A DNA stretch of 64,000 nt from Obrimoposthia wandeli (taxonomy: Eukaryota): contig CDROCS010001071.1 in NCBI GenBank assembly GCA_977020255.1, positions 1,984,001-2,048,000 on the forward strand. Reading direction: 5' to 3'. The notes beneath the pieces are model-generated. The model was given only the letters and a program-made list of their open reading frames with translations. It was not told where the DNA came from and made no database searches. Positions 1-21,950 of the stretch are shown here, one piece after another (within the stretch, counting starts at the first letter, position 1; each line of letters begins with the position of its first letter). The position numbers were made by a program, and so were the translations under genes.

Positions 1-33
1 GAAGAAATAGTTGAGGAGGATATAATTGAAAAT

Positions 34-3000: not shown

Positions 3001-6000
3001 GCAGCGTCATTAGAGCAGTATAGTACGGAGCGAAATGAAGATATCAGAGGTGATATGAATTCGGAAGCTCCAAGTAGTAAAGATATACTTACGGGAATTC
3101 TCAGGCAAGTGAAGCCGAAGTTGTTCAAAATGTACAAAGATGAAACAACCGATATAACAGACAATTTGACTAAAGCAGTTAGATCACAAATGTCTGCAGT
3201 AAAGAGAATGACTGCGAATCATGTATACCATGCATCAATAGATAGATTTTATGACGGTGAAGTTTTAGCAAGATTATGTGGAAACCAGACTACAAATAAA
3301 AAGTTAATTACAGCAATCACATATCTATGTTTCCAATTGACGGAACGAACGAGCCAATCTCACGAAGTCAAACAAGGAATAAATGAAGCGATGTATTTGA
3401 TCGAGAATGTATTGCAGAGACGAATTGACGAAAACGGAGGTTGGGCAAAATTAAGTGACTACGCTAAAACCATTGTGGAAATGAACGAAGACGATGACAA
3501 ACAATGTCATGAGAACCGGCAGAGAGAAAATAAACAATACCGTCCGAAAGAAAGAAACAATCAACCAAATATGTCCACAACAATGATGATGATGATGTTA
3601 GTAATGTTCATGGGAATGCAACAGGCATCAGGGTTGATAGCATACGACTGTAGCATACCAAAAATGGGACAAAAGTATTCACTGCTTGACAGCGAAAACT
3701 GTCCAGAATCACAACCGTCAAAATTAGAAGTTAAAGGTGTTGAAAACTACTTTGTGTATCAGGATGTTGATAAGATACAAGTAGAATTGAAAGAATGTTC
3801 AGTCCATTCAAGTTATCACGAATTCTATTGTGGCCATAGAGGTTTTATGTCGGAAATCACATCTACCACACCGTACAAAGTACATAAGGTTTTTCCGAGA
3901 GATTGCGAAGACGCATTTCGAACAGGAACAATAGACAAGAATTACAAACCTGATGTAAAAGTTGGGGTGAGACGATACGAAACAGTCACGAGAGTAGGAC
4001 AACGATGGCCTGATGGATCTTGTGACGGAGGAACAAAAAACGTGCGTGGTACCAAAGTAACAGAGTTAGTAATGGACGTAACTTACAAAATCGAATTAAA
4101 AACATGGACCGCCAATTTTGATAAAAAGACACAACGAATGATGAAGTATCCGGAATGTAAAATGACAGATGCATCTTGTTTTACAGGTGAATCCACAATT
4201 GTGTATCACGTGAATCCGAAACAATGCTCTTTAGTATTTTTGAAAGAAATTAGTTTTAATAAAATAAAAGGGTTCCTGTATAATAAAGATGGAGAAGGGT
4301 TCCTGTATAATAAAGTTGGAGAAGGATTTCATAATGAAACAAGACCAATTCCTATGACGGCGACACCTACACTGTTAATGGCAACGTCAACAGAAGAAGG
4401 ATTGATATTTATTAAAAAGAGAAATAAAGCGCGATGCGGAATGACTGTTAGTACTACAAACTATCCTGGAATAGTTTTGTCCAGAGAATTAATAGCATTG
4501 GCAGAAACCAAGCTAAAACCTAGAGATATGCAGCTACACACGTATTTTAATAATAAAATTGATTTTTATTATCATAAAGGATTGATGCAAATGGAACAGT
4601 TATATCGGATGATGATCGAGAGAGATTGCCAGCTAAACAAAGAGATCGTAAGAACAAAGTTAGCATTAGCTATTACGAATCCAGACATGGTAGCACCATT
4701 ATTACCCCTGGATGAAGGAGTATTTGCTAAAACCATGGAAGAAGTATTGTATACTTACAAGTGTAATAAAGTAGAAGTACAGTTGAGAAAAACAGATCGA
4801 TGTACGAGTGAATTGGCCGTAACGCATAATTTAAAAGAACTCTTTGTTGAACCAATCACGAGAATGATACTTCCAAAAGACACTCCAACTAAAGAAATCA
4901 GCTGCTCTAATATAATGGCACCTGAATATCAGATGACGAATGATCTATGGATAACGCTACCTGACCGAAAGCCAACGAAAACTCCAGAGATGATAAAAAT
5001 GACAAATCTTAAAGGAAAAATGAAATTCGAAGCGGTAGAAAATATGGAGAACGCAGGTTTGTACAATGAAAAAGACTTAAAAGCGGCCTGGAACGAAATA
5101 ATGTTTCCAGTAAAAAGGGCCAGAGTACTTACGGAGATGGTACATCGAGCATTACCGCCAGGAGCTAGATATGCGAATTTTGATATGTTATTATCGCCAA
5201 GCCATTTCAAGGAAGCAGCACATCAGACACTTAGAAAGATGTGGGGGAAATTCCTTGTTTTAGGACAATTATTTTCGGGTATCATAGGTATTTATGTTAT
5301 AATTAAATTTGTGCAGGTAATTATAGCCCATATGTTGTCTACGTATAGTTTATACAGGATAACCGGAATCACCTGGCAACTTATAATTGGATGTTTTCCA
5401 TTTTTAGCAAAATATCTAATGCACCATCATCACGAGAACGAGTTGCGAGCCCTCAAGAAGGAGCAACATCAAACGAGAACCATGATGCGAAACCCAAGAA
5501 ACTATCGAGACGACAACAACGACGATAATGATAGTCCAGGAGAATATGCAAAGATACCAGGAAAACCAAAGATTCCGTTACCAGACAAGGAAGAAGTGGC
5601 GCTAAACCTATATCCAATGAAGGAACTAAAGGAAGAGAAGGAAAAGTTCAAGAGAGGCATTTTAATGATAAGATGGCCTAAAGTGAACTACAGTAAGATT
5701 CCAAAAGCAGAGGAAAAAGACAAAAAAGATAATTCAAGAAGAATTCTAAAGTCTAGGATATCCAATGAGAATCCAAATGCTCCACCACAAGTAGCAGTAA
5801 CACTGAACGGAAGAGAATATCTTGCCGAAGTCGATACTGGATCTGCAGTATCAGTACTGAGTAAAGAAATCTTGTCATCAAAAGAATTAAGAGAAGTATG
5901 TCCTAGAAAACAGACATTTGTTAACGTAAACGGTACAGATGTAGTGTCAGAAGGAACACTGAAATGTTCATTAAATATCGATGGAAGAGCATTGCAGTTA

Positions 6001-9000
6001 AATGCTAGAATATTCACAGATTGCGGTAGTCCAGTCATGATTGGGATGGACGTAATACGGATGTTTGAAGGAATAATTATATTACCAAACAACAAGAGTT
6101 TTAAGAACGACAGTTCAGTGAGAGAGATAAAAATGTTGAGAGGACCTATAGTCGAAAAGGAAAAATACACTATGTTCCGTATGGGAAATCCGTACCAAGA
6201 TAAGAAACAGGAAGCGCTAGTAAAGTCGATACTTCACTACAAAGATGTAAACTCCGGACCACAAGCTATGACGAGGAGGAAAATAACATATGTGAATCTG
6301 TCAGAAAAAGATCCCTTGAGAATCGAGAAAAATAGACGAAAATCATTAGAACTGTACTATTCAAAAGAAATGGCACGTAAAATGGCAAGATCAGGTTTAC
6401 AAATGTTAAACGCGACAAGTAGTTATGGTCATGAGGAAGTAGTACGATGCGTATGGTGTAGAGTAAAGTTTAGAAAGTGGGAGAAGAATGAAAACCCAAT
6501 GAAACGTCATAAAAGAGATGCACCAAATTGCCCATTTCTTTTGAAACTGAAAACTTCAAAAATACCAGAAATCCAAATGGGAAAAGCACCCGATTTCGAT
6601 TACAGTGACGAGATTCCAAAAGGAGAATCAACTCTAATAGTAGGCAGAGTAATAACAAATAGCCGAATTGAAGACATATTCGAAGTTATGCGAGAAGTGA
6701 ACGAATGTGCCGAACAATATCGAGAAGTAACTTTCGAAGATCCAAGACTTAAAAGATTGGCAAAAAAGGGACTTTTTGCTATAAAAAAGGATGGTAAAGA
6801 CGTAATTAAATGCCACAAGTGTAAAAAAGAACGAATTATCGACAGATATACTCTTGAGTTACCTAAGAAAACTTTACATCACGAATTTTGTGAATTTTGT
6901 ATTTTTAAAAACAAAATAAAGCAAAAAGAACAGAAAACAGAATGTATAATCGAATACCAAATCACACGGAAAGAGATTTTGGCTCAACAAGACACACCGG
7001 TAGTGTCATTCGTGAGAAGACTATATCCAAAAGAAGCAGAAAGAATCAGAGATTTGGTAGAATTAAAAATAAAAACTACACGAAACGGATACGGATCGAT
7101 TTTTGAATTACTAAAAGATAAAGATGATAGTACAATTGAAACAAAAGAGAAAGAGTACATAAACGAACTAGAATACGTACTGGAAGATCCGGAATGTGCA
7201 GTTTGCATGGTCAACAAAATAGAAGTTGCCTTTTTACCATGCGGACATGTAAGAACATGTCGGAGATGTGCGAAGGAAATGGTATCATGTCCGATTTGTA
7301 GAAGGATAATATATCGACAAGTGAGAAATATTAGATTTCACTATCCAAACAAAGGAAGTGGACCGACAGAGTTTAATAATTCGATAAATACAATATACCA
7401 CATGGGAAATATAAATGGAGCACAGCGACCAGCAGCTATCATTAGAGTAAATAATTTAAGAGTAAAAGCCTTAATTGATACAGGTGCGGTAGCTTCGATA
7501 GTAAGTGAAGATTGTTTGACGGAGGAACAGAAACGAACAATGGCAGAACCAGATGAATTCTTGGTATCGGTCAATGGAGACCCTGTAAAAGTGACGGGAA
7601 TATTACCATGTACATTTATAATTGGATGTAATACGATCACTATACCAGTTAGAATCATGAAAAAATGTCCTGAACCTACAATTTTAGGAATGGATGTACT
7701 ATCACAACTCAAAGGGATAAGTATTGATTTACAAGATCCAAGATTGAAGGATAGTACATCAAACAGACAAATAAACCAAATTGATGTAATTATAGAAAAT
7801 CCTATAAAAATCGGTAAAAGATCACAATTTCTCATTCAAGGTCACACATTGTCAGAAGATAAAGGACCAGTTGTGTTCGAACCATCACGGGATTTCATAG
7901 AGAAATACGAATTACCAATTGTGATTACAGCATGTCTGATTGAAAACCACAAAATACCAGTCAGACTGATGAATACAACCAACAATGACATCCTGTTATA
8001 CAGAGGAATGAGGTTGGGAAAGATAGCACAGATGGAGAATCCCACTGTGTGTGCTATGAAACTCGATAAAGACACGAATGATTACGAAGAAATAGTAATC
8101 CACTCAGAAAGACTGACAACTAGAGAAAAGAAACCATTACTTGATCTAATACATAAATTTCCGAAAGTAATTGCAAAAAATCCGTATGACATAGGAGAAA
8201 CACCTGTAATAAAACACACAATACCGCTGACGGAAGACAAAGTAGTCAGAAGAAGACCATATCGAGTACCATTACAGTTACAAGATGAAGTAAAACGTCT
8301 GATTGAAGATATGTCTAAAACAGGAGTAATTAGACCGAGTTTTTCACCATTCTCAGCACCTGTAGTGTTAGTAAAAAAGAAGGATGGAAAAATGAGATTC
8401 TGTATAGACTTCAGAGAACTGAACAAGATCACAAGAAAAGATGTGTATCCATTACCTAGAATCGAAGAGATGCTCGATAAATTAGGTAATTCAGATTATT
8501 TTACGACATTGGATTTGCAGAGTGGATACTGGCAAATCGAGATAGAGGAAGAGAACAAACACAAAACAGCCTTTTCCTGCGGAGATGGACTATACGAATG
8601 CGAAAAAATGCCATTCGGACTGACAGGAGCTCCAGCAACATTTCAGCGTTGCATGAATTTTGTACTCGCATCGTGTGCAAACACGATGGTTTATATCGAT
8701 GACATAATAATATTTTCTAAAACGTTCGAAGAACATTTAAAAAATCTTGAAGTTGTATTTAAAAGACTGGAAAACGCTAAATTAAAAGTTAAACCTACAA
8801 AATGCGATTGGGCTAAAGAGCGAGTAACATTTTTAGGACATATAGTATCGAAAGAATGCATCCGACCTGATACAGCAAAGATCGAGAATGTAAAAGCGCA
8901 TTTAGCGCCAAAGACTGTTAAGGAAATACAGAGTTTTTTAGGTCTTGCGAACTATTATAGACGATTTGTTGTACATTTTTCGGATATAGCAACACCATTG

Positions 9001-10152
9001 AGAAAGTTGACGAGGAAAGATGAGAAGTTCATATGGGGAAAGGAAGCACAACAAGCGTTCGAACATTTAAAAGAAAGACTGATAAAAGCACCAATATTAG
9101 CGTTTCCAGATATAAACCGACAATTCATACTCATGACAGATGCAAGTAACTATGCTGTAGGAGCAGTATTGGGACAAGAGGATGACGAAGGAAGAGAACA
9201 CGTCATCGCGTATGCGAGTAGAGGATTAAACAGAGCCGAAAGAGGATACTCTGTTATTGAAAAGGAATGTCTAGCCATAGTGTATTCATGTAGACAGTAC
9301 AGATACTACTTGCTAGGACAAAAAGTATTCCTGTATACAGATCACAAACCACTACAGTTCTTGTATAAACATAGAGATGAGATGAGTAGATTAAACAGAT
9401 GGTTTCTAAAATTGGCCGAATTTGACCTAGAAATCCGTTATAGAACCGGAAAGTCGAATGGCAACGCAGATTGTTTGTCGAGGTTGACAAATGTAGACGA
9501 GAAAGGAAACATAATTCCAGAAGAAGATGAAACCAACGACCAAAAAGGAGAAGCAAATCTACTAACGATTTTGCTGAAGACGGGTAAAATAGACAAAGAG
9601 ATCATCAAAGAACAGAAAGAAGATGAAGAATTGAGTCTAATAAAAGAACTGTTGGTGAAAGGAGATCTAAACGATGAAATGACGAAAAAATACTCGATAA
9701 AAGAAGGAATCTTGTATATTGTCAACAATGTCGGAAAGATAGTAGTAGTAATTCCGAAGTCATTGAAAACAGCAGTGATGATCCAGTATCACGATGGAAC
9801 ACTAGGAGGACATCTGTCAGGACGAAAGACAATAGCCAGAATCAAAGAGAAATACCATTGGGATGGTATGGAAGATGACATAAAACAATGGTGTAAACAA
9901 TGTAAAGTATGTTTAACCAGAAAAGACACCGGAACTCGTACTAAAGTTCCATTAAAACCGATGCCAGTTCCTTTGGCACCAATGGAATTCACAGCGATGG
10001 ATATATTGGGACCATTGAGAGAATCAAGTAAAGAAAACAAGTACGTCATAGTATTTACGGACTACATGACGAGATGGATAGAAGCATATCCCATGCAAAA
10101 CCAGAAGGCTGAAACAATAGCGCAGATCTTAGTGGAAGAGATAATATTTTGA
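34..10152 (+). CDS. Gag-Ubl-Bcl2-like-Env-PR-IAP-PR-RT-RH-IN polyprotein, 3372 aa, truncated in the integrase core by TGA
   Basis: Uninterrupted ORF with Gag core (~150-700), CX2CX4HX4C, two DTG proteases, YIDD RT, RNase H (TDASNYAVGAVL, TDHKPL) and integrase HHCC + DILGP. The frame is also open from base 1, so the true start may be upstream. Confidence 0.95.
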   Translation: MAQPGAPVDNNAGNNVGDMNAEQLALALNATLRPNFSGSLQITKFKGDEESICDFLAEYSSCADVQGWNDREKCIRVQAHLTGLALEVYKHLTEAERLDWATLENAFIGILVLGDLAKVNKRIMRERKQKHDEGVNEYAYVLRTLAARTYPRIIMRNQDGNPVAPEAQVAENNRNQNEMAEVLLDIFRGGLKKDIKVLLAVSDTNDFDNAVRKAREIEKNIKNNAAMAIYAMTTGDDDKTKVFVNKTEPSNFQNRNYGQNKFEKGDESSNGNRDNFRNRNRDDSRSRNNSESWNRNRDDSRGRNSNDSWNRNRDDSRNRFSRDNSGNRQPWRGDDRNYNANRGERSDSRFGNNTGSRDGRFNNRGSGFESNFRRNYFRGRYDNRQNSRRVQFEDEQNKIDIRGRIMCYTCKQMGHYSRDCTRSKEFGTNRFGNNNFGNNNFGKNYRGYNSPPPWNRGGGYTPQPWRPNNQYTDRQQSPGRYNNYADRQQGAERYNNYVGQQVAERYNNSGRYNNNNVDKTNSRESSPKPKGNFSYVNDDSDRNRETELRREIDFEDSDSKFERMLGIIKDSPHTKMANSSTLSKQEKSLHSREEINDLMNRILEAYETPIEKTCNAQPMTDHIEAARNATSMENLKKIISEAKETLNQPLDETSEAPEVLAKLQTIKVHRLEEVRAELVKHSHDNLGYKEVPRGLLKGYGRYVQRSNQNGTMKISLRLISGQIIHEKLNVYQTMKTIRKMLAEKLEIDGMNMLFHYKGRSLDDEDVPVECGYPIGNELEEKIDVITVERQELVDNEGLTEILNSALEMIKTPIEILDSSSESGDNDVAEAWNKTSTPEPYVAELQDVELENELTTPLVEVPPEPEIIQTRQDEVTDIANQVRQNENVTQLVGEDEISEIIDLDSPIWHAAYRDRQAEQMMRQNEEIGHEEGPSQEIQYNGEPYDPGENQTEYQYFRRGPGRPRKDGSILRNVLTAPQTDEERHLSIGQLAASLEQYSTERNEDIRGDMNSEAPSSKDILTGILRQVKPKLFKMYKDETTDITDNLTKAVRSQMSAVKRMTANHVYHASIDRFYDGEVLARLCGNQTTNKKLITAITYLCFQLTERTSQSHEVKQGINEAMYLIENVLQRRIDENGGWAKLSDYAKTIVEMNEDDDKQCHENRQRENKQYRPKERNNQPNMSTTMMMMMLVMFMGMQQASGLIAYDCSIPKMGQKYSLLDSENCPESQPSKLEVKGVENYFVYQDVDKIQVELKECSVHSSYHEFYCGHRGFMSEITSTTPYKVHKVFPRDCEDAFRTGTIDKNYKPDVKVGVRRYETVTRVGQRWPDGSCDGGTKNVRGTKVTELVMDVTYKIELKTWTANFDKKTQRMMKYPECKMTDASCFTGESTIVYHVNPKQCSLVFLKEISFNKIKGFLYNKDGEGFLYNKVGEGFHNETRPIPMTATPTLLMATSTEEGLIFIKKRNKARCGMTVSTTNYPGIVLSRELIALAETKLKPRDMQLHTYFNNKIDFYYHKGLMQMEQLYRMMIERDCQLNKEIVRTKLALAITNPDMVAPLLPLDEGVFAKTMEEVLYTYKCNKVEVQLRKTDRCTSELAVTHNLKELFVEPITRMILPKDTPTKEISCSNIMAPEYQMTNDLWITLPDRKPTKTPEMIKMTNLKGKMKFEAVENMENAGLYNEKDLKAAWNEIMFPVKRARVLTEMVHRALPPGARYANFDMLLSPSHFKEAAHQTLRKMWGKFLVLGQLFSGIIGIYVIIKFVQVIIAHMLSTYSLYRITGITWQLIIGCFPFLAKYLMHHHHENELRALKKEQHQTRTMMRNPRNYRDDNNDDNDSPGEYAKIPGKPKIPLPDKEEVALNLYPMKELKEEKEKFKRGILMIRWPKVNYSKIPKAEEKDKKDNSRRILKSRISNENPNAPPQVAVTLNGREYLAEVDTGSAVSVLSKEILSSKELREVCPRKQTFVNVNGTDVVSEGTLKCSLNIDGRALQLNARIFTDCGSPVMIGMDVIRMFEGIIILPNNKSFKNDSSVREIKMLRGPIVEKEKYTMFRMGNPYQDKKQEALVKSILHYKDVNSGPQAMTRRKITYVNLSEKDPLRIEKNRRKSLELYYSKEMARKMARSGLQMLNATSSYGHEEVVRCVWCRVKFRKWEKNENPMKRHKRDAPNCPFLLKLKTSKIPEIQMGKAPDFDYSDEIPKGESTLIVGRVITNSRIEDIFEVMREVNECAEQYREVTFEDPRLKRLAKKGLFAIKKDGKDVIKCHKCKKERIIDRYTLELPKKTLHHEFCEFCIFKNKIKQKEQKTECIIEYQITRKEILAQQDTPVVSFVRRLYPKEAERIRDLVELKIKTTRNGYGSIFELLKDKDDSTIETKEKEYINELEYVLEDPECAVCMVNKIEVAFLPCGHVRTCRRCAKEMVSCPICRRIIYRQVRNIRFHYPNKGSGPTEFNNSINTIYHMGNINGAQRPAAIIRVNNLRVKALIDTGAVASIVSEDCLTEEQKRTMAEPDEFLVSVNGDPVKVTGILPCTFIIGCNTITIPVRIMKKCPEPTILGMDVLSQLKGISIDLQDPRLKDSTSNRQINQIDVIIENPIKIGKRSQFLIQGHTLSEDKGPVVFEPSRDFIEKYELPIVITACLIENHKIPVRLMNTTNNDILLYRGMRLGKIAQMENPTVCAMKLDKDTNDYEEIVIHSERLTTREKKPLLDLIHKFPKVIAKNPYDIGETPVIKHTIPLTEDKVVRRRPYRVPLQLQDEVKRLIEDMSKTGVIRPSFSPFSAPVVLVKKKDGKMRFCIDFRELNKITRKDVYPLPRIEEMLDKLGNSDYFTTLDLQSGYWQIEIEEENKHKTAFSCGDGLYECEKMPFGLTGAPATFQRCMNFVLASCANTMVYIDDIIIFSKTFEEHLKNLEVVFKRLENAKLKVKPTKCDWAKERVTFLGHIVSKECIRPDTAKIENVKAHLAPKTVKEIQSFLGLANYYRRFVVHFSDIATPLRKLTRKDEKFIWGKEAQQAFEHLKERLIKAPILAFPDINRQFILMTDASNYAVGAVLGQEDDEGREHVIAYASRGLNRAERGYSVIEKECLAIVYSCRQYRYYLLGQKVFLYTDHKPLQFLYKHRDEMSRLNRWFLKLAEFDLEIRYRTGKSNGNADCLSRLTNVDEKGNIIPEEDETNDQKGEANLLTILLKTGKIDKEIIKEQKEDEELSLIKELLVKGDLNDEMTKKYSIKEGILYIVNNVGKIVVVIPKSLKTAVMIQYHDGTLGGHLSGRKTIARIKEKYHWDGMEDDIKQWCKQCKVCLTRKDTGTRTKVPLKPMPVPLAPMEFTAMDILGPLRESSKENKYVIVFTDYMTRWIEAYPMQNQKAETIAQILVEEIIF
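1252..1293 (+). other. Gag CCHC zinc knuckle (CYTCKQMGHYSRDC)
   Basis: Exact CX2CX4HX4C motif inside an R/N/G-rich region. Confidence 0.93.
2167..2400 (+). other. Ubiquitin/SUMO-like (beta-grasp) domain in polyprotein
   Basis: MKISLRLISGQII...TMKTIRKMLAEKLEI...LFHYKGRSLDD resembles ubiquitin MQIFVKTLTGKTI...TIENVKAKIQDKEGI...LIFAGKQLED; no terminal GG. Confidence 0.7.
2899..2925 (+). other. AT-hook motif RRGPGRPRK
   Basis: GRP core flanked by basic residues. Confidence 0.6.
3073..3480 (+). other. Divergent Bcl-2-like domain
   Basis: BH2-like RRIDENGGWAKLSDY (cf. WIQDNGGWDAF), preceded at the expected spacing by a BH1-position hydrophobic helix (TTNKKLITAITYLCFQL); NWGR not conserved. Confidence 0.5.
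3571..5420 (+). other. Envelope glycoprotein, chuvirus/gB-like class III fusion protein type, with internal signal peptide and C-terminal TM
   Basis: Signal peptide MMMMMLVMFMGMQQASG|LIAYDC and a Cys-rich ectodomain. Motifs YFNNKIDF..., DCQLNKEI..TKLALAITNPD, EVLYTYKCNKVEV.LR.T.RCTSELAV, LFVEPITRMIL and GLY resemble chuvirus glycoproteins. TM at ~5251-5337. Confidence 0.8.
5782..6063 (+). other. Retropepsin aspartic protease 1
   Basis: LAEVDTGSAVSVL (DTG at 5833) and C-terminal MIGMDVI. Confidence 0.88.
6325..7302 (+). other. IAP module: BIR (6325-6540), degenerate BIR (~6712-6900), C3HC4 RING (7195-7302)
   Basis: R..S...MARSG...VRCVWCRVKFRKWEKNENPMKRHKRDAPNCPFL is a canonical BIR with CxxC..H..C. 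RING CAVC..AFLPCGHVRTCRRCA...CPICR is IAP-type. Confidence 0.9.
7438..7710 (+). other. Retropepsin aspartic protease 2 (canonical pol position)
   Basis: VKALIDTGAVASIV (DTG at 7477) and ILGMDVL; followed by the usual gypsy PR-RT linker. Confidence 0.92.
8200..9490 (+). other. Reverse transcriptase and RNase H
   Basis: SPFSAPVVLVKKKDG.MRFCIDFRELN, LDLQSGYWQ, MPFGL.GAPATFQR, YIDD (8692-8703), FLGH, TDAS, EKECLAI, TDHKPL. Confidence 0.97.
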
Positions 10153-10720
10153 TACGGAGTACCTAGAAAGTTATTAACGGATCAAGGTAAGAACTTCACT
10201 GGAGAAGTAATCAAAGCAGTATCGAAGATATTCGGAATCATGAAGTTACAAACTTCACCATATCACCCACAAACCGATGGTCTAGTAGAAAGGTTTAATA
10301 AAACTTTATGTATGATGGTACAATCCTATTGCTCAGACAAGCAAGAGGATTGGGATAAATATTAGAACAATATGCCAATGATCTGGAGTGGACCGAACCA
10401 ACATCTCAGTATCTAGAAACTGAACAATACATTGTCGTTATGAAAGAAAGATTGCAAGATGCTTGGACTAAAGCAGGATTGAAACTGAAATTCAATCAAG
10501 AAGGTTACAAGGAACAATATGACAAAAAGGCAAAACCACATGAATTTAGAGTCGGAGACCAAGTGATGATATTTTATCCAGTCATCGAACCAGGTCTATC
10601 GTTTAAACTTCATAGACCATACAAAGGACCATACAAGGTGATACAGACAACCTCAACAAATTTGAAAGTAATCAACGAGGAGAACCGGAACAAAGAACCA
10701 ATGATTGTACATGCAAATCG
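9780..10720 (+). pseudogene. Integrase, disrupted (TGA at 10150-10152; deletion/frameshift at ~10362)
   Basis: HHCC finger and DILGP are followed by a TGA, then in frame YGVPRKLLTDQGKNF...SPYHPQTDGLVERFNKTL. The usual 'PYVLFAYRT...TPF' segment is missing, and the frame resumes shifted with a GPY/F motif (KLHRPYKGPYKV). Confidence 0.9.
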
Positions 10721-12041
10721 ATGTAAATTAGTACCAAATAAAGATAACACGTCACGATACGAGTTAAGATCACAGAAATTGAAGCCGAATACCAATACCA
10801 TTAAACTTACACGAATGGTAAGTGATCGAAACTACATAAATATGATGACAAGTGGTAGCGAGAGAAAACCAGTGAGAATTGGTATGCTCAGAATGAAGCA
10901 CCAAGAGGAAAAAGAAGTAATCCGACACATCGCACCACAAGAGATATTGGAAGAAGACGAAGAGATAATAGTTGTTTTCGAAAGAACACAACCAACAGAT
11001 GTGGCGAAAGAAGTCATTGTGAAAGATGCACTGACAAACGAATTTCTATGCGAACTTAGAGTGTCATACTACGACGGAAATACATTAGTCGCAGAACTAC
11101 ATCAAAACTCCAATGTGTTTACGACTGAGAAAGTGATCATCGAAATCACATTGACACCAAACATAGTTGCATGGCAGAACTATGACAGTACTGAAGCAGG
11201 ACTAGCATGTCAGGAAGAAAAAGAACCGGCCGGTGGTCACATACTGCATGGTACACCAAAAAGACTCAAACAAGAATACCACGATGTAATAATGGTATTA
11301 CGTAATTCACATGGGAAAAGAGACATAATGAGAGTTCATTTAATCGACGCTGACACTGAAAAGATAATCTGTCAGATGGACACCAAATACTTTGACGGAA
11401 AGACCATTGTATGTAATATACCGGAATCTCACCAATTAAACACAGATCAAACGGAAGTATCTGTAAGGTTGAGCGTAATAGAAGGATTTCATTCGCCAAC
11501 CCAACCGGAAGTAACAAACAATGAAATCATTAAAGCAACGGCAGAGTTACGCATTGACAGCGGATACCGGAAGTGGGAAGCTAAAAATAAACCACAAAGA
11601 ATCAATATGATCCGAGAACAAGTGACAACCTCAATTCAACCAAAATATCATGCTGAAATAGTATCAACCGCACCAAGTGTGATTACATCGATAAACGACG
11701 AAATTATAATTTTACTAAAAAATCGATGGCCGTCATCAACCGAGATACGAGTCAATTTAATTAATTATGCGAAAACACCCATATCTAAGCTGAATGTCAC
11801 CTATTTCGATGGATTGTCCATCATGGGTAAATTGGAAACAATTGTCATGTGCTACGGAGCACAGTTCCAAGTTGAGATACTTAAAGATAGTGTAATACCG
11901 TATCCAATTCACAGATACGCAGGACCAGTCAATCCAATTATTCTAACCCCTTCATTAATTTCAGTTCAGACAGACATACCAGAATTCCCTTCGAACGAGT
12001 CTAGTCAAGACAGCGAACCTGAAAGTAGCGATCCAGAATAA
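10440..12041 (+). CDS. Integrase C-terminus (GPY/F) plus three ~65-aa repeats of an unknown domain; frameshifted continuation of the polyprotein
   Basis: Frame open from 10362; FRVGDQV...KGPYKV; repeats share Y(Y/F)DGx(T/S)(L/I). Confidence 0.8.
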   Translation: MKERLQDAWTKAGLKLKFNQEGYKEQYDKKAKPHEFRVGDQVMIFYPVIEPGLSFKLHRPYKGPYKVIQTTSTNLKVINEENRNKEPMIVHANRCKLVPNKDNTSRYELRSQKLKPNTNTIKLTRMVSDRNYINMMTSGSERKPVRIGMLRMKHQEEKEVIRHIAPQEILEEDEEIIVVFERTQPTDVAKEVIVKDALTNEFLCELRVSYYDGNTLVAELHQNSNVFTTEKVIIEITLTPNIVAWQNYDSTEAGLACQEEKEPAGGHILHGTPKRLKQEYHDVIMVLRNSHGKRDIMRVHLIDADTEKIICQMDTKYFDGKTIVCNIPESHQLNTDQTEVSVRLSVIEGFHSPTQPEVTNNEIIKATAELRIDSGYRKWEAKNKPQRINMIREQVTTSIQPKYHAEIVSTAPSVITSINDEIIILLKNRWPSSTEIRVNLINYAKTPISKLNVTYFDGLSIMGKLETIVMCYGAQFQVEILKDSVIPYPIHRYAGPVNPIILTPSLISVQTDIPEFPSNESSQDSEPESSDPE

Positions 12042-13310
12042 AAGAATCCGAAGATAACATAATAGAGCGATTCGAAAAAACCATGGAGGTTGAATTCGCT
12101 AAAGAGAGCAGAAAAAGACGAAACATAGAATTCGTGAAACAGAATATACAAGAAAGACGAATCAAATCTGCAGAAGAGACCGAGTCGGAAGAGGAATCAA
12201 CAAAGGAACAGACATCAGAGACAAAGATGAATATATCTCCAGCAATACGAATGCTGAGAGGAAAGAAACTGGCGAAACTATCCAACATTGACGAACAAAT
12301 AAAGAAGAGATTAGAAAGACTAAAACTTTAAGAGTCAGAATTAATGCCACCAATGAGTGAGATCATTCCAGGTAAGTTATACCTCGGAAATGTGGAAGAT
12401 GCAACAGACGAAAAGAAACTGTTGGAACAAGGGATAACATACGTGATCAACGTTACAATGAATCACAAATCTTAATATCAGACGATCAGAGCCATGACAT
12501 TAAGAGTAAAAGACTCAATGGAGGCTAATCTTCTCGAATGGTTCGTAAAAACAAACGAGATACTTCACAGAGAACTCCAAAACCAAGGAAAAGTGTTGGT
12601 ACATTGTCAGAAAGGAATCTCCCGATCAGCAACCCTAGTATTAGCGTATCTAATAAAGACTAGACGAATGCAGGTACTAGAAGCGCTGAAATACCTGCAG
12701 GAAAGAAGAAGTATTGCAAACCCAAACCTTAATTTTTTGGGACAATTGTCAAATTACCAACTCCTGTTGCAAGAACAGAGACGGATGGACGACATCCCTG
12801 AGGATCCAAAGGAAAAGAATTTCCTCCAAGCACTATCGTTGACCGGATTATTCTTAGCCGGAGTCGATAAAATCACTCAGATAATGCCGAAAGTATTTTT
12901 ATGTTATCCAGGAGATATAGATACCGCTGGATTAAAGTTCCACAGTATCAACCGAGTAATTAATATTGTCGAAGTCGGAAATGAGATAATCAGTCTGTGT
13001 CAAAATACTGAAGATGACACAACTCGATACATACATGCTTCCAATCGAGAGATAAATGATGCACAACAACATCTGATGAAATTGACTCAAACCATTCAAG
13101 CCGAAGTCACAGAAGGAAACGGCGTTCTGATATATCAGAAAAAGGTACAATGTTAGCTCCTACCATAGGTGTATCCTTGTTGGTAGAGTACCATGATCAT
13201 ACACCAGAAGAAGCGATGGTTTATATCAAACAGAATAGACCAGACACGGAATTCAAACCGTTACTCGTTCGAGAAATAGAGAAGTACTCCGAAAAGAGGA
13301 AGCAACAACG
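12029..13310 (+). pseudogene. Charged linker plus tandem dual-specificity phosphatase domains (first with intact HCX5R, second degenerate)
   Basis: One frame from 12029 to 13156 with stops at 12329 and 12473: MSEIIPGKLYLGN..DA...GITYVINVT, VHCQKGISRSATLVLAYL, RSIANPNLNFLGQL. The second domain (ITQIMPKVFL...EEAMVYIKQNRP) crosses a frameshift at ~13140. Confidence 0.85.
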
Positions 13311-13794
13311 AGAAACAAATGAAGCTACAACAACAGTACCCAGCTATCAATACCAAAGATTGCTAGCACTAGGCTTGTTAAATTGTTTGATGCCGATAAC
13401 AGGAGCACAAGAGATAGGCTCCAACCACGGAAATAGTTCATGGTTCAAAGAAATCAACAACTACATCATACAGTACCATACACCGGCACTGATGATGCTA
13501 TTAGTGTTGTTAGGACTAATTGATGTGTGGGTCATCCGAAAATGTCTCCGATCTATGAGAACCGACAGTAAAAGATTTCAGTTTGTAAAGATGAAGAGAC
13601 CAACTGGACCAACGAACCAAGTACTTGTGTATCTAGACGAAAGGATTGAGGATAACATAGTGAATGAAGCGATATTCTATCCACAAAACAGAATACTGAA
13701 TCAATTCCGAATAGTTACGAAGCTGATCGACAGCGCACACTTGACCGAATATCAGCAACATTCGCCGGATGCAGGCGAAGAAAACGAATTGTAA
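13150..13794 (+). CDS. Polyprotein fragment: end of pseudo-phosphatase, signal peptide plus TM cassette
   Basis: LLALGLLNCLMPITGA|QE followed by TM ALMMLLVLLGLIDVWVI. Confidence 0.65.
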   Translation: MLAPTIGVSLLVEYHDHTPEEAMVYIKQNRPDTEFKPLLVREIEKYSEKRKQQRETNEATTTVPSYQYQRLLALGLLNCLMPITGAQEIGSNHGNSSWFKEINNYIIQYHTPALMMLLVLLGLIDVWVIRKCLRSMRTDSKRFQFVKMKRPTGPTNQVLVYLDERIEDNIVNEAIFYPQNRILNQFRIVTKLIDSAHLTEYQQHSPDAGEENEL

Positions 13795-13883
13795 AGGAAA
13801 TACAAAAAGATGCGGATACAAAAGGTCCGACGTATATATTCGACGGCGATGTCATCAAAACACGTGAGTATGGAAGTAAGAGA

Positions 13884-14267
13884 GTGATAATTGAAACGAT
13901 GGAAGGACATAAAACATGCTTGTCCGCCAAAAATGGATTCGGAAAGTTGACGATACAAGGTAAACAGGTACAGTTGATTATCGGAAAAACTGGAATCGAA
14001 GATATGTCAAAACAACGACAGACAACAAAACGACCTAACCAGAAACATATATTTCTCAAACGAATGATAATCAAAACCCTTTGCAAAAGGACAATCAAGG
14101 CCCTGTGCACCGTTGCACAAGGATTAATCTACGGAGTAGTAATTGGATTGGTACTACAAGCCATTCCAACCAGTAAAGCTGAATTGATGACACTATCCGA
14201 ATATAATTTACATTTGAGAAATCTAGACAACACCCTAGAAATAATCAAGACGTCCCACAGTATGTGA
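13884..14267 (+). CDS. Polyprotein fragment ending in a signal-peptide-like segment
   Basis: Frame open from ~13790; LIYGVVIGLVLQAIPTSKA|EL; overlaps the next ORF by a -1 shift. Confidence 0.55.
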   Translation: MIIETMEGHKTCLSAKNGFGKLTIQGKQVQLIIGKTGIEDMSKQRQTTKRPNQKHIFLKRMIIKTLCKRTIKALCTVAQGLIYGVVIGLVLQAIPTSKAELMTLSEYNLHLRNLDNTLEIIKTSHSM

Positions 14268-16060
14268 AAGGATGTCCACGACGAATGTGTATAGTCCCAG
14301 CGACCGAAATGAAAACACTTAATGGACATTATGGAGTTAGTGTTGTCACATGTGAAGATTACACATTTGGACAAACTAAAATAGTACTTCTCAGTGACAT
14401 GTCCAACCAAAGTGTACATAAATTTAAAATATTAACCATCAAGAGTAAAGGGATACCAGCAATACGTTATGGTATTCTAGAATTGGTTAATGCAATACTG
14501 GCATTGATCATAGGATTTATAATATTAATATTACTCATATTGTTTTGTTGTACAAAGATAGAGTTGAGATCAAAAAAGAAACGTCATGATCTCGCAAGAC
14601 AAACAGGTCAAATGAATTTACAAAAATTCAACACAAGTATACCAAGACCAGCATTCCTAAATGAACCAGCACCAGAGTACCAGCCAACAATATATGAACA
14701 TATCGAGGAAAGACCGTACTATATGAGTAACTTGAGTTGTTCCAGAGAAGTTCCTGAGATTCGGAACCGAACGATATTAGGAATCATGCTGATCATGCAA
14801 ATCACCACGACCGAGGCTGGTTATGAGATCATGATCAGTAAATGGAGACAAGATACGATACGTGCGTTATACATAGAAATCCCTCTATTAAAAACAAATC
14901 ACGTAGTAGACATTCACTTACAAACGTCAGCAACCGACAATGTCGATCAGAAATTGTATGTCATCCGACAGGTCAGAATAAAGATTGACCAACATACACC
15001 TTATTACCGACTGATATTATTCTATCATGAAAGGGTGTTATACCTACGGATAACGATATCAAAGAGGAAACGGATTATTCAAAGTATCCGAACAAAGTCA
15101 TTAATATTGCCTAGAGATGAGCGAATATGGAAAGTTGTCGACAGGATTATGATCACAGGTAGACGACGTAAAACCGTATGGAATTCCGTTAGAATATTCT
15201 TCAGATTGTTAGAAACTGACCAGGCAACAGTGGCGTGTCTCAATCCAGATGGTGGAATCAGATTCGAAATTCAAAACCAAATGTTAATACCACATTTTGA
15301 TGCAGAATGTCTATGTAACCGAATTCCCAGCAATGCTAGAGAGACCACTACCATAATCATGGTAATAACAGGTGAAATATTCTACATAACTCTAAGATAC
15401 CAGACACGTCGATTTCGTGGACTCGGTATAAGTATTAAACCCAGGAAAATTATTTCCGGAAAACCAATCAAGGTCATAAAAAAGGAAAAGGTGAAAGGAA
15501 GTAAACGTCATTCCAAAAAGCCAATCATAATCAAAAAGAAGGCAAAGGTAAACGGAAGTAAACGCCATTCCGAGAAGCCAAAAGTAGTCATAACAAAGGC
15601 AGAAGTGAAAGGAAAAGAGCTCAATCCCAGAAACCAAAGTACAAGTATTAAGAGGACAAGAGTGAAGGGAACGATCCCACTAGATCCCAAACATCATTTC
15701 CAATCTAAATTAATAATACCTGTTCCACCGGAAACAAAATATCCAAATCCGCGAGTTATTAGAAAATCGGACATAATACATGGAAACCGATCAACACCAA
15801 TGGAAATGTCATTCAAACCGACAAACAACAAAATGAAGTATGATTATCAATCATCAGACAGCGGAATAACAGCGGTCAATGCTCTAATTGGAATGGCAGT
15901 AGTGTCAACAGCAGTGGTCCTATTGACAGTCGTGTGCGTGAAAGGCAGTCAAGTATGTCCAAGAATACGACGAAAATGCGAAGGACTGCGATGCTGTAAC
16001 ACACCCACAATGGAGGAAGTGGAATTGCGACCCTTACCTCCGCCTCCCATCAAGACATGA
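14264..16060 (+). CDS. Polyprotein C-terminal part: TM, signal peptide, ectodomain with Lys-rich duplication, TM, Cys/Pro-rich tail
   Basis: 598-aa ORF with TM ILALIIGFIILILLILFCC, signal TILGIMLIMQITTTEA|GY and TM ALIGMAVVSTAVVLLTVVCV. A homologous relic lies at 56500-56815. Confidence 0.75.
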   Translation: MKGCPRRMCIVPATEMKTLNGHYGVSVVTCEDYTFGQTKIVLLSDMSNQSVHKFKILTIKSKGIPAIRYGILELVNAILALIIGFIILILLILFCCTKIELRSKKKRHDLARQTGQMNLQKFNTSIPRPAFLNEPAPEYQPTIYEHIEERPYYMSNLSCSREVPEIRNRTILGIMLIMQITTTEAGYEIMISKWRQDTIRALYIEIPLLKTNHVVDIHLQTSATDNVDQKLYVIRQVRIKIDQHTPYYRLILFYHERVLYLRITISKRKRIIQSIRTKSLILPRDERIWKVVDRIMITGRRRKTVWNSVRIFFRLLETDQATVACLNPDGGIRFEIQNQMLIPHFDAECLCNRIPSNARETTTIIMVITGEIFYITLRYQTRRFRGLGISIKPRKIISGKPIKVIKKEKVKGSKRHSKKPIIIKKKAKVNGSKRHSEKPKVVITKAEVKGKELNPRNQSTSIKRTRVKGTIPLDPKHHFQSKLIIPVPPETKYPNPRVIRKSDIIHGNRSTPMEMSFKPTNNKMKYDYQSSDSGITAVNALIGMAVVSTAVVLLTVVCVKGSQVCPRIRRKCEGLRCCNTPTMEEVELRPLPPPPIKT

Positions 16061-16184
16061 TAAGTCAGAGGAGGTTGTAGATAAATTAGTGTGTGAAATA
16101 TGTAGAAATATCTAGAAGCGATTGTACAAATAAGTAGAAATATGTAAAACTCATGTAGAAATTAATTGTCATCATGTATTTAGA

Positions 16185-16484
16185 ATGTCCGAGGAATGCC
16201 CAATATGTTTGGAAGATTTAACCGAACGAATAACAAGACCCGAAACCTGCAACCATTTACATCACAAGGAATGTTTATCAAAATGGATCAGAACTTATGG
16301 AAAATTCGTACATCCAACATACCCTCGTTGCCCTGTATGCAGAAGACAATTCACAAAGTTCATCATGATAGAACCCAACCAAGAGGATGTAGATGTACAG
16401 GTGGTATTCTGTTGGAAGAATTTCAGAGAGTGTTGGTGTTACTACTGTCTGTCAGAACGACAAAATCCGACCACTTTTGTGTAA
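16185..16484 (+). CDS. RING-H2 protein 1 (putative E3 ligase), element accessory gene
   Basis: CPIC...CNHLHHKEC..W...CPVCR plus C-terminal CW....CWCYYC. Confidence 0.85.
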   Translation: MSEECPICLEDLTERITRPETCNHLHHKECLSKWIRTYGKFVHPTYPRCPVCRRQFTKFIMIEPNQEDVDVQVVFCWKNFRECWCYYCLSERQNPTTFV

Positions 16485-16544
16485 ACATCACACAACCACC
16501 AGTCCTCAATCGAGCCCAAATTCAACACCAACCCTCTCACAGTA

Positions 16545-16850
16545 ATGTCTGGAGAATGTTCCATCTGCTACGAGAACATCGTGGACCTCTCCACCAAACC
16601 CAACAACTGCGACCACCAGTTCCACGTCGAATGCCTCGAGACGTGGATCCCAATAGCCAACAACAACAATCCCCTCGACTACCCAAACTGCCCGATGTGC
16701 AGAGCAACCTTCTCGGTGCACTATGTCTACAACCGGGACAGCCTCCAAGCAGTGGTACCCATTGTACACTGCTGGAAAAACATCTGCGACTGCTGGTGTT
16801 CGTTCTGCGTGGAGGAGCGACGCACAGTCCAGCCCAACACCCAGCAGTAA
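16545..16850 (+). CDS. RING-H2 protein 2 (paralog of RING 1)
   Basis: CSIC...CDHQFHVEC..W...CPMCR plus CW....CWCSFC; GC-richer than surroundings. Confidence 0.87.
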   Translation: MSGECSICYENIVDLSTKPNNCDHQFHVECLETWIPIANNNNPLDYPNCPMCRATFSVHYVYNRDSLQAVVPIVHCWKNICDCWCSFCVEERRTVQPNTQQ

Positions 16851-17202
16851 CCGAAGGTAACTTTCTGACTTAAAACGTGACATCATGAACTACCCCTGTG
16901 TATCGCATACCGCGATAAATTAGCTACCATAATTGTAATCATAATTGTATAATCTTGTGAAACTGTAAAATGACCATTACCATTTTTATGTATGTTGTTT
17001 ATTTGAAATTGTAATTATTATACTGAAACAAAAGACAATTTTTATGCTTAGTATGAATGTGAAAAACATGCCTAAAATCAAGACAGAACTCGGTAGGATT
17101 AAAATACTAAGGTTTATGATATTAAAACTAAAATATTAAATTCGTAAATTAATATTAAAACCAAGTTGTACCCCGAATTAAAAAGAAGTAATTATTGAGC
17201 AG

Positions 17203-17715
17203 ATGATTTGCTCAATCTGCCTCGAGACCATCCGGCAAGCGTCGGCAAAACCTGCTGGGTGCCAGCACAAGTTTCACGAAGCTTGCCTATACAAGGGGGC
17301 CAGATCCCTAGCCCTATCCGCAGGGCACATCACTTGCCCAATGTGCCGCACCCCCTTCGCCGAATGGGCACTCAAGTGCCGAGGACGCCTGAAGGGCAAT
17401 CGCTCTCTGGCAACCTGCATTGGCGGACAGCACTGCAGATGCTTCGTGTGCCTGGCGCGCCGTCGAGACGTGCAAATTGGCATCCGCGAGCGATGGCGAT
17501 CTAGCCGCGACTGCCGCTCATGGCAGCAGGGCAGACGGTTTTGGATCGCAAACAATCGGCTGTACGGCTTTGACTTAATTGTCGAAAGCCCCCATCTGAG
17601 TCCTGCCCAGCAGTCGGCCTTATACACAGGGGACACTCCGTCCTTTCCGGACCTGCCCCTGGAGCATATAATGCTCTTCCTAGACGATCGGAACATGCCG
17701 GACATGGATGACTAA
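17203..17715 (+). CDS. RING-H2 protein 3 with C-terminal extension
   Basis: CSIC...CQHKFHEAC...CPMCR plus C......CRCFVC; GC-rich. Confidence 0.82.
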   Translation: MICSICLETIRQASAKPAGCQHKFHEACLYKGARSLALSAGHITCPMCRTPFAEWALKCRGRLKGNRSLATCIGGQHCRCFVCLARRRDVQIGIRERWRSSRDCRSWQQGRRFWIANNRLYGFDLIVESPHLSPAQQSALYTGDTPSFPDLPLEHIMLFLDDRNMPDMDD

Positions 17716-18270
17716 ACTGATTCATTCCCTTTTTCTGTGCTACATTTTTAGTTATGTATATAATATAATTGAACATTTGCGACCGTGTCCGAATTTTTCA
17801 TAAAAAAAAATAATACCGAGTTTTGACAAAACTTTTGGGCCTGTTTGATGAGTTTGAATGATTGAAATTAAGTGGGGATATTTCTAAAATCTGAGGCTAA
17901 TAAGTTTAGTAAAATAAAATCGATACGTTCCGGGGACGTAACTTTTTCAGAACCCCCGAGATATGTTAGGTTTAGGTTTTGGAAACAAATTAAATAATTA
18001 ATTGATTTTATAGTAAAATGAAAATCCTTGAAAGCAAGGTTAGAATTAAATAAATTTTATATTAAAATTAAAATTGTTGAGTTTAGATAGTAAATAAATA
18101 TTAGAGGACCACGAAGGTCGTGTGTAATGCGTAAGTATATAAGATATTAAGTTTAAAAACAAAGGGCCCCAAAAAACAGAGTTGCCAAGAAGAAAAAAGA
18201 ATTACAAAGAAAATTGGAAAGACAAGTGCAATTAGCAGAAAATTGGAAAATATCATTAGAAGAAAAATCA

Positions 18271-18478
18271 AGCCACGTCAACTCAGCCACGTCACAACAG
18301 CTGTTTTCCTGAGGTAATTAATTACTTGAACTTGGCTCAAATTAGAGAATCCTCGTTGAAACGAGAACCACAGGAAGAAGTGAGTGACAAGCCACGTCAC
18401 CCAACAATCCACGAGAAGAAATCCATTGCCAACAGCTGGACTCAGTACACACGCCTAAATAGAAAATAGACTATATAA
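18271..18478 (+). promoter_or_regulatory. LTR promoter: three AGCCACGTCA bZIP sites and a TATA box (TATATAA, 18472-18478)
   Basis: Exact 10-mer at 18271, 18285 and 18390, upstream of TATA. Candidate leader splice donor AAG|GTAAGA at 18563. Confidence 0.55.
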
Positions 18479-19000
18479 GTCTACGTATAGAAGAAAATAT
18501 ACCCCCAAAAAGAAATCAATACTGCACCAGGAGACAAGACAGAAGACGAAATCGACACGAAGGTAAGATGAGTAGGAACATCTCCACCAAATTTAAGTTG
18601 AAACGCGCAGATAATCAGTGTGACAATACAACACAAGCCGATTTCGCGATCAACACAGCGGAACGATCGTGCCGATAGCAGACAGCTCTGGGAAGTCCGA
18701 ATCTCAATTCAAACGCCAGATCTCGCACCAGAACAACAAACGGAAGTAGTATCTAATTCTGCACCGGACGCAGTGGGAACAACATCACTACAGTACCTAC
18801 AAATAACAAGAGCAATTCAAGCAGAGCTACCGGATCTCAACGAAGGATCGTTCGTGATTATCGCAGTCAATTCGCGTGCGGGATTTGATAACTGGAGCAA
18901 ACTAAAGGTATAAATACCCACAAATTTGAAGGAAAAGTTAGCAAGATTAATTTCGTTGAAGTTCAATTTTGTTAAAGTTATAAAGATTAAGTTCGCTGAA

Positions 19001-20140
19001 GTTGATTCGTTTAAGTAAAATTGAATTAAATACCGTTGATTCGTTTGAGTAAAATTGAATTAAATACCATTGATTTGTTTTAAGTAAAATTGAATTAAAT
19101 AACCGTTGATTCGTTTAAGTAAAATTGAAATAAATACCCGTTGATTTGTTTAAGTAAAATTGAATTAAATACCATTGATTTGTTTAAGTGAAATTGAATT
19201 AAATACCGTTGAATTGTTTGAGTAAAATTGAATTAAATACCATTGATTTGTTTTAAGTAAAATTGAATTAAATAACCGTTGATTCGTTTAAGTAAAATTG
19301 AATTAAATACCATTGATTTGTTTAAGTGAAATTGAATTGAATACCGTTGAATTGTTTAAAGTGAAATTGAATTAAATACCGTTGATTCGTTTAAGTAAAA
19401 TTGAATTAAATACCATTGATTTGTTTTAAGTAAAATTGAATTAAATAACCGTTGATTCGTTTAAGTAAAATTGAATTAAATACCATTGATTTGTTTTAAG
19501 TAAAATTGAATTAAATAACCGTTGATTCGTTTAAGTAAAATTGAAATAAATACCCGTTGATTTGTTTAAGTAAAATTGAATTAAATACCATTGATTTGTT
19601 TAAGTGAAATTGAATTAAATACCGTTGAATTGTTTGAGTAAAATTGAATTAAATACCATTGATTTGTTTTAAGTAAAATTGAATTAAATAACCGTTGATT
19701 CGTTTAAGTAAAATTGAATTAAATACCATTGATTTGTTTTAAGTAAAATTGAATTAAATAACCGTTGATTCGTTTAAGTAAAATTGAAATAAATACCCGT
19801 TGATTTGTTTAAGTAAAATTGAATTAAATACCATTGATTTGTTTAAGTGAAATTGAATTAAATACCGTTGAATTGTTTGAGTAAAATTGAATTAAATACC
19901 ATTGATTTGTTTAAGTGAAATTGAATTGAATACCGTTGGATTGTTTAAAGTGAAATTGAATTAAATACCGTTGATTCGTTTGTGTAAAATTGAATTAAAT
20001 ACCATTGATTTGTTTAAGTAAAATTGAATTAAATACCGTTGATTCGTTTGAGTAAAATTGAATTAAATACCATTGATTTGTTTAAGTAAAATTGAATAAA
20101 TACCCGTTGATTCGTTTAAGTAAAATTTAATTAAATACCC
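19001..20140. repeat. ~34-bp tandem satellite inside LTR, ~33 copies, alternating variants
   Basis: Unit GTAAAATTGAATTAAATACC(G/A)TTGATT(C/T)GTTTAA. The array is bracketed by a ~50-bp direct repeat (18913-18965 and 20135-20185). Confidence 0.95.
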
Positions 20141-21950
20141 GCAAATTTGAAGGAAAATTATAAAGATTAATTACGTTGACGTTCGATTCGTTTAAGTAAA
20201 ATTGAATTAAATATTGGAGAAATAAGATCTCCAACTCATTTCATAGATTAGAGCAACCAGCTTCCCAGAAGACTTCTTACTTAACGTTGTTACATTTGGA
20301 GTACAGACTCTAGTAACCATCTAACCCTAACGTTAAAATCGATACGTGGTTCATCCCCACTTGAGTAGAGACTTTCAGAAGTCTTAGGAATTTTACTACA
20401 ACTTTTTAGAAAATACGTACGTAAACGTATTGTTTTGTTTAGTCTAGTGTGTTAACAATAAACGATTTCCTACATTAGAAAGCATTGTTCTAAAACCTTC
20501 AGATTAAGAGACATTGAAAAACAAACACCTTCAGATAAGCATTGAGACAGGCAACTATAACATTAGGTAGGCCACGACCAACTTTAAGACCTGCTTCTAT
20601 AAGAACTCACGTTGGGGCCCTCCACATTCAAGAGGATCTATAAGTTTCATATAGAAACCCCAACATTTTCTCAGTGGCCTGTAATGGTCATAGCTTTTGC
20701 TAAATAGGCAAACCTTATCGGTAGGATTTTAGAATTTCATGAGTTATATTATCTATATATACCATTTTATCTGTCAGCTACACGTTATGAAATAATCCGA
20801 TTTTTTCATTCTTGAATTACATATTAGTGAGTTAACCTTGTTATTGGTCATTTGCCTCATATTCGATATCTGATTTGTGTATTATATATTACTAAGTCAA
20901 TATACTGGTTGGTTGAATAGCTACACCAAAAGTGGAACACAAATTACGCTGGTTTATTGTAAATTCATATATAGTACTATTTTAGAAAAAATCAATATAT
21001 GCATAGCGGATTCTAGTAATTTTGAAGTACTGCATACAATAACTTCCAAAAATGGGGAATAACCAGAATAAGCCGGCAACACAGGTTATATACTTTTTTA
21101 AGAACTCACGCACCAGAGGCTTCTAATAAATGTAACAACTCTGAACCTAAAAGTAGAAAATAATTAGATTTTCTGGATTTAAAGACTTATTTAAATGTTA
21201 CATAATATATTCTGTTGTATGTTGATAATTCTAATGTTATATGTGTTAATAATACTTTTTATCATACATCAAAGCTATCTAATATTTATATTAAAATATA
21301 AATGTAATTTCATCAGAAAATTACATACATAATCAATTTCAATGAACAAAGTGTCAAGTCAGTTTTTTAATACAATTTATTTATTAGTGATTTTAAATCA
21401 TAACAATATAATTTTATTCTAATTATAGGCAATCTTGTTATTACATGGAATTCTTTCTGTAATGACATTAAAAAACTATTTACATATCTAAGACACTAAC
21501 ATTGAAATGAATCGTTAATTATTATATAATTTACAAACTATTTGTGATTTCTGATTTTGGAAAAACATTGTGAATCATGTTGTCTTTTTATAATTTTGAC
21601 TCTTCAATTTTTGTTGCTTAATCGTACAATTTGTCAAGTAATTTTTAGACTATGAAACTAGGATTTTAATTGTTAAAAATATTTTAAACCCTTACTCGAA
21701 TTTAAAAATAATTTATTGATTTGTTTCAAAAAATCACATATTTATATACATTTAAAAAAGCTTAAATACAAAATAAATAAGTTGGAAATTAAATAATTAT
21801 TCATAGAATAATATTAAACAAATTAATTTAGTATTGTATTTTAATGAATCAATTAAATTGCTAAAAATTTACGAACAATTTTAAAAATATGTTTATAAAT
21901 AATCGCCATTATATATAATTTTCGCCAGCTGATAGCTTTCCTACCCATTC

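Follow-up and report, generated by a model that had tools for sequence, protein, structure and literature searches.

The closest described relatives of the element considered here are the planarian Burro retrotransposons (GYPSM1/Burro1-4). As far as the available part of their description goes (PMC6431247), they have long LTRs and very many copies, and their giant polyprotein carries gag, Ubl, Bcl2-like, BIR and RT/RH/IN, with apoptosis and ubiquitin modules and an in-frame mononegavirus-type env, all of which recurs here. MATH, ankyrin and dUTPase-like motifs vary between Burro elements according to the same partial source. In S. mediterranea Burro1 is under PIWI control (PMC8532177, the accessible portion of which gives no link to the genes treated below), and its B-IAP, a BIR plus RING, affects host stem-cell survival according to Lee et al. 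2026 (known from excerpts, via PMC13465017). From such partial accounts, a tuning of host apoptosis and of stem-cell survival by elements of Burro type is already suspected, and for Burro1 it has been reported. What the accessible part of PMC6431247 does not mention is a 3′ cassette of stand-alone RING-H2 genes, and such a cassette is present here. A giant element kind rich in ubiquitin and apoptosis modules is known; new is a three-gene cassette that is under selection and has an unmatched Cys4 tail.

The window, by which is meant the whole stretch of 64,000 nucleotides that was analysed, holds an element whose domain architecture matches the published description of Burro and which is to be classed, on that likeness, as a Burro-like Ty3/gypsy giant LTR retrotransposon (Table 1). 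Its PR-RT-RH-IN order, TG..CA LTRs and target-site duplication, which is 4 bp in all three copies examined, are those of Ty3/gypsy. The env is a Monjiviricetes-type fusion protein (PF24664, E 1.9e-90, residues 1194-1841), in frame and flanked by zf-CCHC and protease. Pfam also reports a BIR (E 4e-13), an IAP-type RING is present as well, and the signals for ubiquitin (E 0.022) and Bcl-2 (E 0.06), though below cut-off, stand in the expected order. Two departures from the partial Burro account are the presence, 3′ of the integrase in the giant polyprotein, of a DSPc dual-specificity phosphatase (PF00782, E 4.6e-30, 12476-13156) and the lack of detected MATH or ankyrin: Pfam reported no MATH, ankyrin or dUTPase-like motif, of which the accessible part of PMC6431247 found some by HHpred only. 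The polyprotein of the window copy is broken into about seven pieces in the list of open reading frames; in a second copy the same stretch is a single reading frame with in-frame stops as its only interruptions. No 5′ LTR of the window copy was found within 30 kb upstream. The placement of the 3′ LTR makes the RING genes internal to the element, lying between it and the polyprotein stop, so that the 3′ accessory slot proposed in an earlier, sequence-only reading of this DNA is indeed where they are.

Table 1. Positions of the features in the window
Feature	Position	Strand	Description
Giant polyprotein	1-16060 (stop)	+	gag-(Ubl)-(Bcl2-like)-env-PR-BIR-RING-PR-RT-RNaseH-IN-DSPc (Pfam; Ubl and Bcl2-like weak)
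TAG, splice-acceptor-like	16181-16183	+	1 nt 5′ of RING1 ATG
RING1	16185-16484	+	99 aa; RING-H2, beta-hairpin, Cys4 tail (Pfam, alignment, copy diversity)
RING1 Cys4 tail	16410-16448	+	C76, C83, C85, C88
CAG, splice-acceptor-like	16540-16542	+	2 nt 5′ of RING2 ATG
RING2	16545-16850	+	101 aa; GC3 0.78; most constrained of the three paralogues
RING2 Cys tail	16770-16808	+	
CAG, splice-acceptor-like	17200-17202	+	directly 5′ of RING3 ATG
RING3	17203-17715	+	170 aa; RING-H2, Cys4 tail, C-terminal extension without match; diverged allelic types
RING3 Cys4 tail	17416-17451	+	C72, C78, C80, C83
3′ LTR	17964-20665	+	about 2.7 kb, TGTT...AACA ends; placed by comparison with other copies
TATA-like box in LTR	18136-18142	+	
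Donor-like AG/GTAAT in LTR	18312-18318	+	
AATAAA in LTR	20457	+	

Between copies the middle of the LTR (18212-20300) is hypervariable, with a collapse of both similarity and alignment depth, and the two LTR ends are conserved; in the window copy the LTR includes a 35-nt tandem array at about 18930-20170. Directly 5′ of the 3′ LTR (17925-17963) there is no polypurine tract, the place being taken by a conserved stretch bounded by GGGG...CCCCC. Of three copies (L043, L045 and L048), two have, 8 nt past the end of the 5′ LTR, a primer-binding-site-like stretch, TGGTGCCCC, which we take to resemble the complement of elongator tRNA-Met; in L048 it is degenerate. Elsewhere in the window, at about 54885-55830 on the minus strand, is a GC3-rich (0.63) host-like gene, GNAT acetyltransferase-like by eye and with one in-frame stop, and near the element copy L045 there is a further IAP-type RING fragment outside the cassette (9499-9642, minus strand in that locus).

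All three short ORFs exceed the Pfam cut-off for zf-RING_2 (PF13639; E 4e-10 for RING1, 3.8e-9 for RING2 and 2.3e-6 for RING3), their ligands are C3H2C3 in the RING-H2 arrangement C-x2-C...C-x-H-x2-H-x2-C...C-x2-C, and in alignment the other two share 38% and 27% identity with RING1. The proposal that three paralogous RING-H2 ORFs lie here is thus borne out, as is that of a common C-terminal Cys motif: the tail is C-x5/6-C-x-C-x2-C in each, its four cysteines are invariant, and the last RING Cys is separated from the first tail Cys by 23 residues in all three. After the RING the only positions invariant across the paralogues are F56, C76, C83, C85, C88 and R92, and Arg-rich residues follow directly on the Cys tail. 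The motif occurs nowhere in a 3,383-residue polyprotein piece. In RING1 numbering P50 and R53 are invariant, and I7 and W34 are kept in at least 90% of 11 rows; we take I7, W34 and P50 to be E2-facing hydrophobics and R53 to be the linchpin-position Arg. Residue 32 of the window's RING3, in the E2-facing helix, is a private substitution found in 1 of 44 open copies. The C-terminal extension of RING3 (17491-17715) has no Pfam match, and a P-x-F/Y-P-x-L-P-L-E-Q-V motif in it is kept across alleles. In composition (GC/GC3) RING1 is 0.40/0.40, RING2 0.55/0.78 and RING3 0.59/0.68. The remark that the second and third ORFs are GC-richer was right, since their GC3 is above that of every one of 33 polyprotein blocks (0.31 +/- 0.06, maximum 0.46), and the contrast is also seen in nine measured ORFs of more distant subfamilies.

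The tail had been called novel and a profile search proposed as the check, and no significant match emerged from Pfam, PDB, viral contigs or 1.84 billion proteins. RING2 alone gave no candidate in a protein database, and an 11-row profile gave there two generic RING matches, which span 54-63% of the query and both lack the tail. With a profile of the tail none of 3,115 candidates among longer proteins matched at E <= 1, and none of the 1.84 billion representative proteins at E <= 0.001, keeping in mind that a profile of 47 positions has limited power and that eukaryotic repeats are probably under-represented among the representatives. Against Pfam and PHROGs the tail had scattered weak matches only, such as metallothionein at E 0.11 in 1 of 18 rows. 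An Atlas search with the tail reached a best score of 0.79, to be regarded as a lead only. Lactoferrin, the sole match to the tail among PDB sequences (E >= 0.37), was judged to be chance. A literature survey covering titles and the beginnings of abstracts found no such cassette described.

An AlphaFold model built on a 56-row alignment (mean pLDDT 83.5; a three-sequence run with pLDDT 43.9 was set aside) has a RING at residues 1-60 (pLDDT 85-95), then a hairpin (residues 58-72) and a helix (residues 86-94); pLDDT in the Cys tail is just 57-78. In PDB the fold matches are generic RINGs, with Z up to 7.2 and rmsd 2.6 over 62 aligned residues; these searches, being confined to residues 1-67, hardly reached the tail. 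The top entries from a library of viral structures are PE38, CG30, IE2 and ICP0 (E 1.5e-4 to 7e-4, with 15-22% identity in the top rows), and the nearest neighbours in a language model are small giant-virus RING proteins. The description of the three as viral-type E3 ligases holds to the extent that those top structural matches are viral RING E3s; a viral origin gains no support from a tree with 24 viral-contig RINGs, in which there was no supported placement and the PE38, IE2 and ICP0 sequences were not included.

How widespread and how old the cassette is can be gauged from its copies. Protein searches gave 21,938 and 17,919 first-look candidates, figures that are lower bounds and not copy numbers, and among the best 150 of each the scored matches were 150/150 for RING2 and 150/150 for RING3. 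A codon-restricted DNA pattern for RING plus tail had 1,567 matches against 3 for its control, again a lower bound rather than a copy number. From a DNA-pattern search with 107 matches, most of which, among the matches listed, lie in one tandem repeat, 32 non-tandem loci were examined: 29 are this cassette, in subfamilies intermediate in divergence, and three match nothing. The match to ordinary host genes that the sequence-only reading had named as counting against it was not seen within the reach of the DNA pattern, which is intronless genes with certain codons at those 32 loci: no host gene with RING plus tail was found by it. On the minus strand at 56484-57400 the window has a remnant of an older subfamily, consisting of a polyprotein C-terminus and an LTR end; RING genes do not follow it. 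Its part at 56484-56760 led to a decayed subfamily with about 75% nucleotide identity, which has the same three genes, order and tail. In a tree each slot forms one group (support 95/92 for RING1, 73/97 for RING2 and 98/98 for RING3), and by these sequence comparisons RING1-3 are paralogues older than the split between the subfamilies. The departures observed from the triplet are confined to single copies and consist of deletions or a partial duplication, so that of the earlier notion of an expanded family the three paralogues stand, and what they form is a fixed triplet. The single copies in question (L211, L207, L249 and L242) are without RING2 or RING1, or have repeated RING2 C-terminal pieces.

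Among copies the RING genes are under purifying selection, RING1 marginally so. For 29 copies chosen on the polyprotein end, with singletons masked, piN/piS is 0.07 (0.01-0.18) in RING2, 0.23 (0.16-0.34) in the first 96 codons of RING3 and 0.46 (0.22-0.97) in RING1, where the range with all codons is 0.33-1.00; it is 0.38 in the polyprotein end. For positive selection on RING3 there is no support (piN/piS 0.21-0.26). A set of 63 loci was partly chosen on RING2 or RING3, and the RING2 ratio derived from it was put aside for that reason; in it the three frames are open in 50/63, 56/63 and 44/63, and each tail cysteine persists in 49-50 of 50 open copies of RING1, 54-56 of 56 of RING2 and 42-44 of 44 of RING3, the last at a median identity between copies of just 72%. 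A different argument, that the three ORFs are intact despite the adjacent broken polyprotein, is correct as to the open frames and the pieces; it is uninformative because, at the window's break rate, three short ORFs would be open by chance with P about 0.66 (0.61-0.71). Nor was any sparing of the RING genes from stops and frameshifts seen among the 29 copies chosen on the polyprotein end: RING1 is broken in 8/26, RING2 in 5/26, RING3 in 14/25 (where alignment noise is likely) and a 1.76 kb polyprotein stretch in 17/28, and the disruptions per kb are 2.85, 0.76, 4.17 (probably noise-inflated) and 1.04 in the polyprotein end.

RING3 stands apart in its diversity. Its piS is about 0.39, compared with 0.04-0.08 in RING1, RING2 and the polyprotein end, and pairwise difference between copies, 1-7% upstream, reaches 15-24% in the stretch from about 17150 to 17900. 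Variation in one half of RING3 goes with that in the other (rho 0.78), and the gene shows almost no linkage to RING1, RING2, the polyprotein end and U3 (rho 0.00-0.21 over 29 loci picked for their closeness in RING2, correlations that the low diversity elsewhere weakens), which points to old RING3 types having been shuffled onto a young, uniform backbone. There is no excess of amino-acid change in RING3. A bolder reading, speculative and rather doubtful, is that the element resembles a complex retrovirus, with three spliced accessory mRNAs for E3s of its own that carry a new RING-Cys4 arrangement, and that RING3 types are balanced against host restriction or silencing factors; as the LTR is hypervariable too, 3′-end recombination among subfamilies would suffice in place of balancing selection. 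The RING3 alleles form a natural series for comparison when substrates are sought.

Each RING ATG is preceded at 0-2 nt by YAG, compared with 44 of 437 other same-strand ATGs (chance about 0.001). The AG is kept before RING1 in 64/65 near and 23/30 far copies, before RING2 in 67/68 and 19/25, and before RING3 in 26/27 and 48/54 despite variable upstream bases; at RING1 and RING2 it overlaps the -3 position of the start context. In the LTR, the leader 3′ of the TATA-like box is mostly without ATG, and of the 21 LTR segments that could be tested (from 29), 18 have a donor-like word after the TATA region against 6.8 expected, a comparison to be read knowing that the pattern was picked after viewing the sequences and that LTRs related to one another are not independent samples; in four of the 18 there is a match at position 0, which for three of those is the sole match. 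This layout suggests separate cis-spliced subgenomic RNAs for RING1-3, with trans-splicing as the alternative should the host be a flatworm (PMC12582326, available in part).

On the whole RING1-3 are a fixed and selected accessory cassette which probably, with confidence somewhat above even, encodes three RING-H2 ubiquitin ligases with a predicted zinc-binding Cys4 module, likely made from spliced RNAs. A short LTR leader would be cis-spliced, or a host spliced leader trans-spliced, onto each acceptor; the RING domain would recruit a host E2; the hairpin and Cys4-helix might stabilise the RING or bind substrate, as for the C2HC finger of RNF125, with a third zinc predicted at the C-terminal Cys4 module; and the substrates may be host proteins that hold the element in check or bring about the death of its host cell, an action that would complement those polyprotein modules which are BIR-RING, Bcl2-like, Ubl and phosphatase. 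The size of RING1 and RING2, only 99-101 residues, leaves scant room for a substrate-binding part, the residues after the tail are rich in Arg, and a fold match by itself is no proof of function, all of which would suit real accessory proteins that are non-catalytic, whether decoys or adaptors sequestering E2s or RING partners or nucleic-acid binders acting through the basic tail. We regard this as unlikely, given that paralogues and alleles alike keep I, W and P at the E2-facing positions and R at the linchpin position, a pattern that fits catalysis and yet would also fit E2 binding alone.

As to the tail, a fixed four-Cys arrangement suits a four-ligand metal site, and exactly four cysteines at fixed spacing persist across paralogues 27-38% identical; that they are instead a lipidation or redox motif placing the RING on membranes or particles is improbable, even with the lower model confidence of the tail, the absence of matches to known zinc-finger families and the pairing of its cysteines with basic and aromatic residues. 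Very improbable, and largely refuted, is the idea that recently captured host or DNA-virus genes are carried here as passengers without function for the element. The GC3 of RING2 and RING3 is near that of the sole host-like gene measured (0.63), the language-model neighbours are giant-virus proteins and copies lose RING genes at ordinary rates, but there is purifying selection among transposed copies, the triplet predates subfamilies about 25% diverged, the pattern loci are the cassette itself or unmatched, and none of 80 viral RING ORFs checked has the Cys tail. As the products of the cassette would be small and soluble and its splice junctions are predicted, element-versus-host control becomes directly testable.

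In complex retroviruses, whose accessory genes are expressed from spliced subgenomic RNAs, short 3′ ORFs stand behind acceptors with a donor near the 5′ end, a layout similar to that seen here; this element is a Ty3/gypsy one with splicing predicted from motifs, and retroviral accessory proteins mostly act by recruiting host ligases and have no RING of their own. Baculovirus PE38, IE2 and CG30 and herpesvirus ICP0 have a RING followed by beta-strands as in RING1-3, and viral RING E3s are mostly much longer. In RNF125 a zinc module adjacent to the RING is needed for E2 binding, and the C2HC finger directly after the RING of RNF125 and RNF114 serves as a working model for the tail (PMC4944129, from its accessible part). 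The tail differs in lying 24 residues past the RING, in having other ligands and spacing and in lacking a conserved His, and the RNF125-type structural match (Z 5.9) extends over residues 1-66 only, with no match to the tail in sequence. Also comparable is Burro1 B-IAP, an element-encoded RING module (PMC13465017, in the part available) with a counterpart in the BIR-RING of the polyprotein here. There the RING is IAP-type and accompanies a BIR, whereas RING1-3 are free-standing RING-H2 proteins with a Cys4 tail and no BIR, and the cassette would give such elements a direct means of having host proteins degraded, together with a Cys module that is new in association with a RING.
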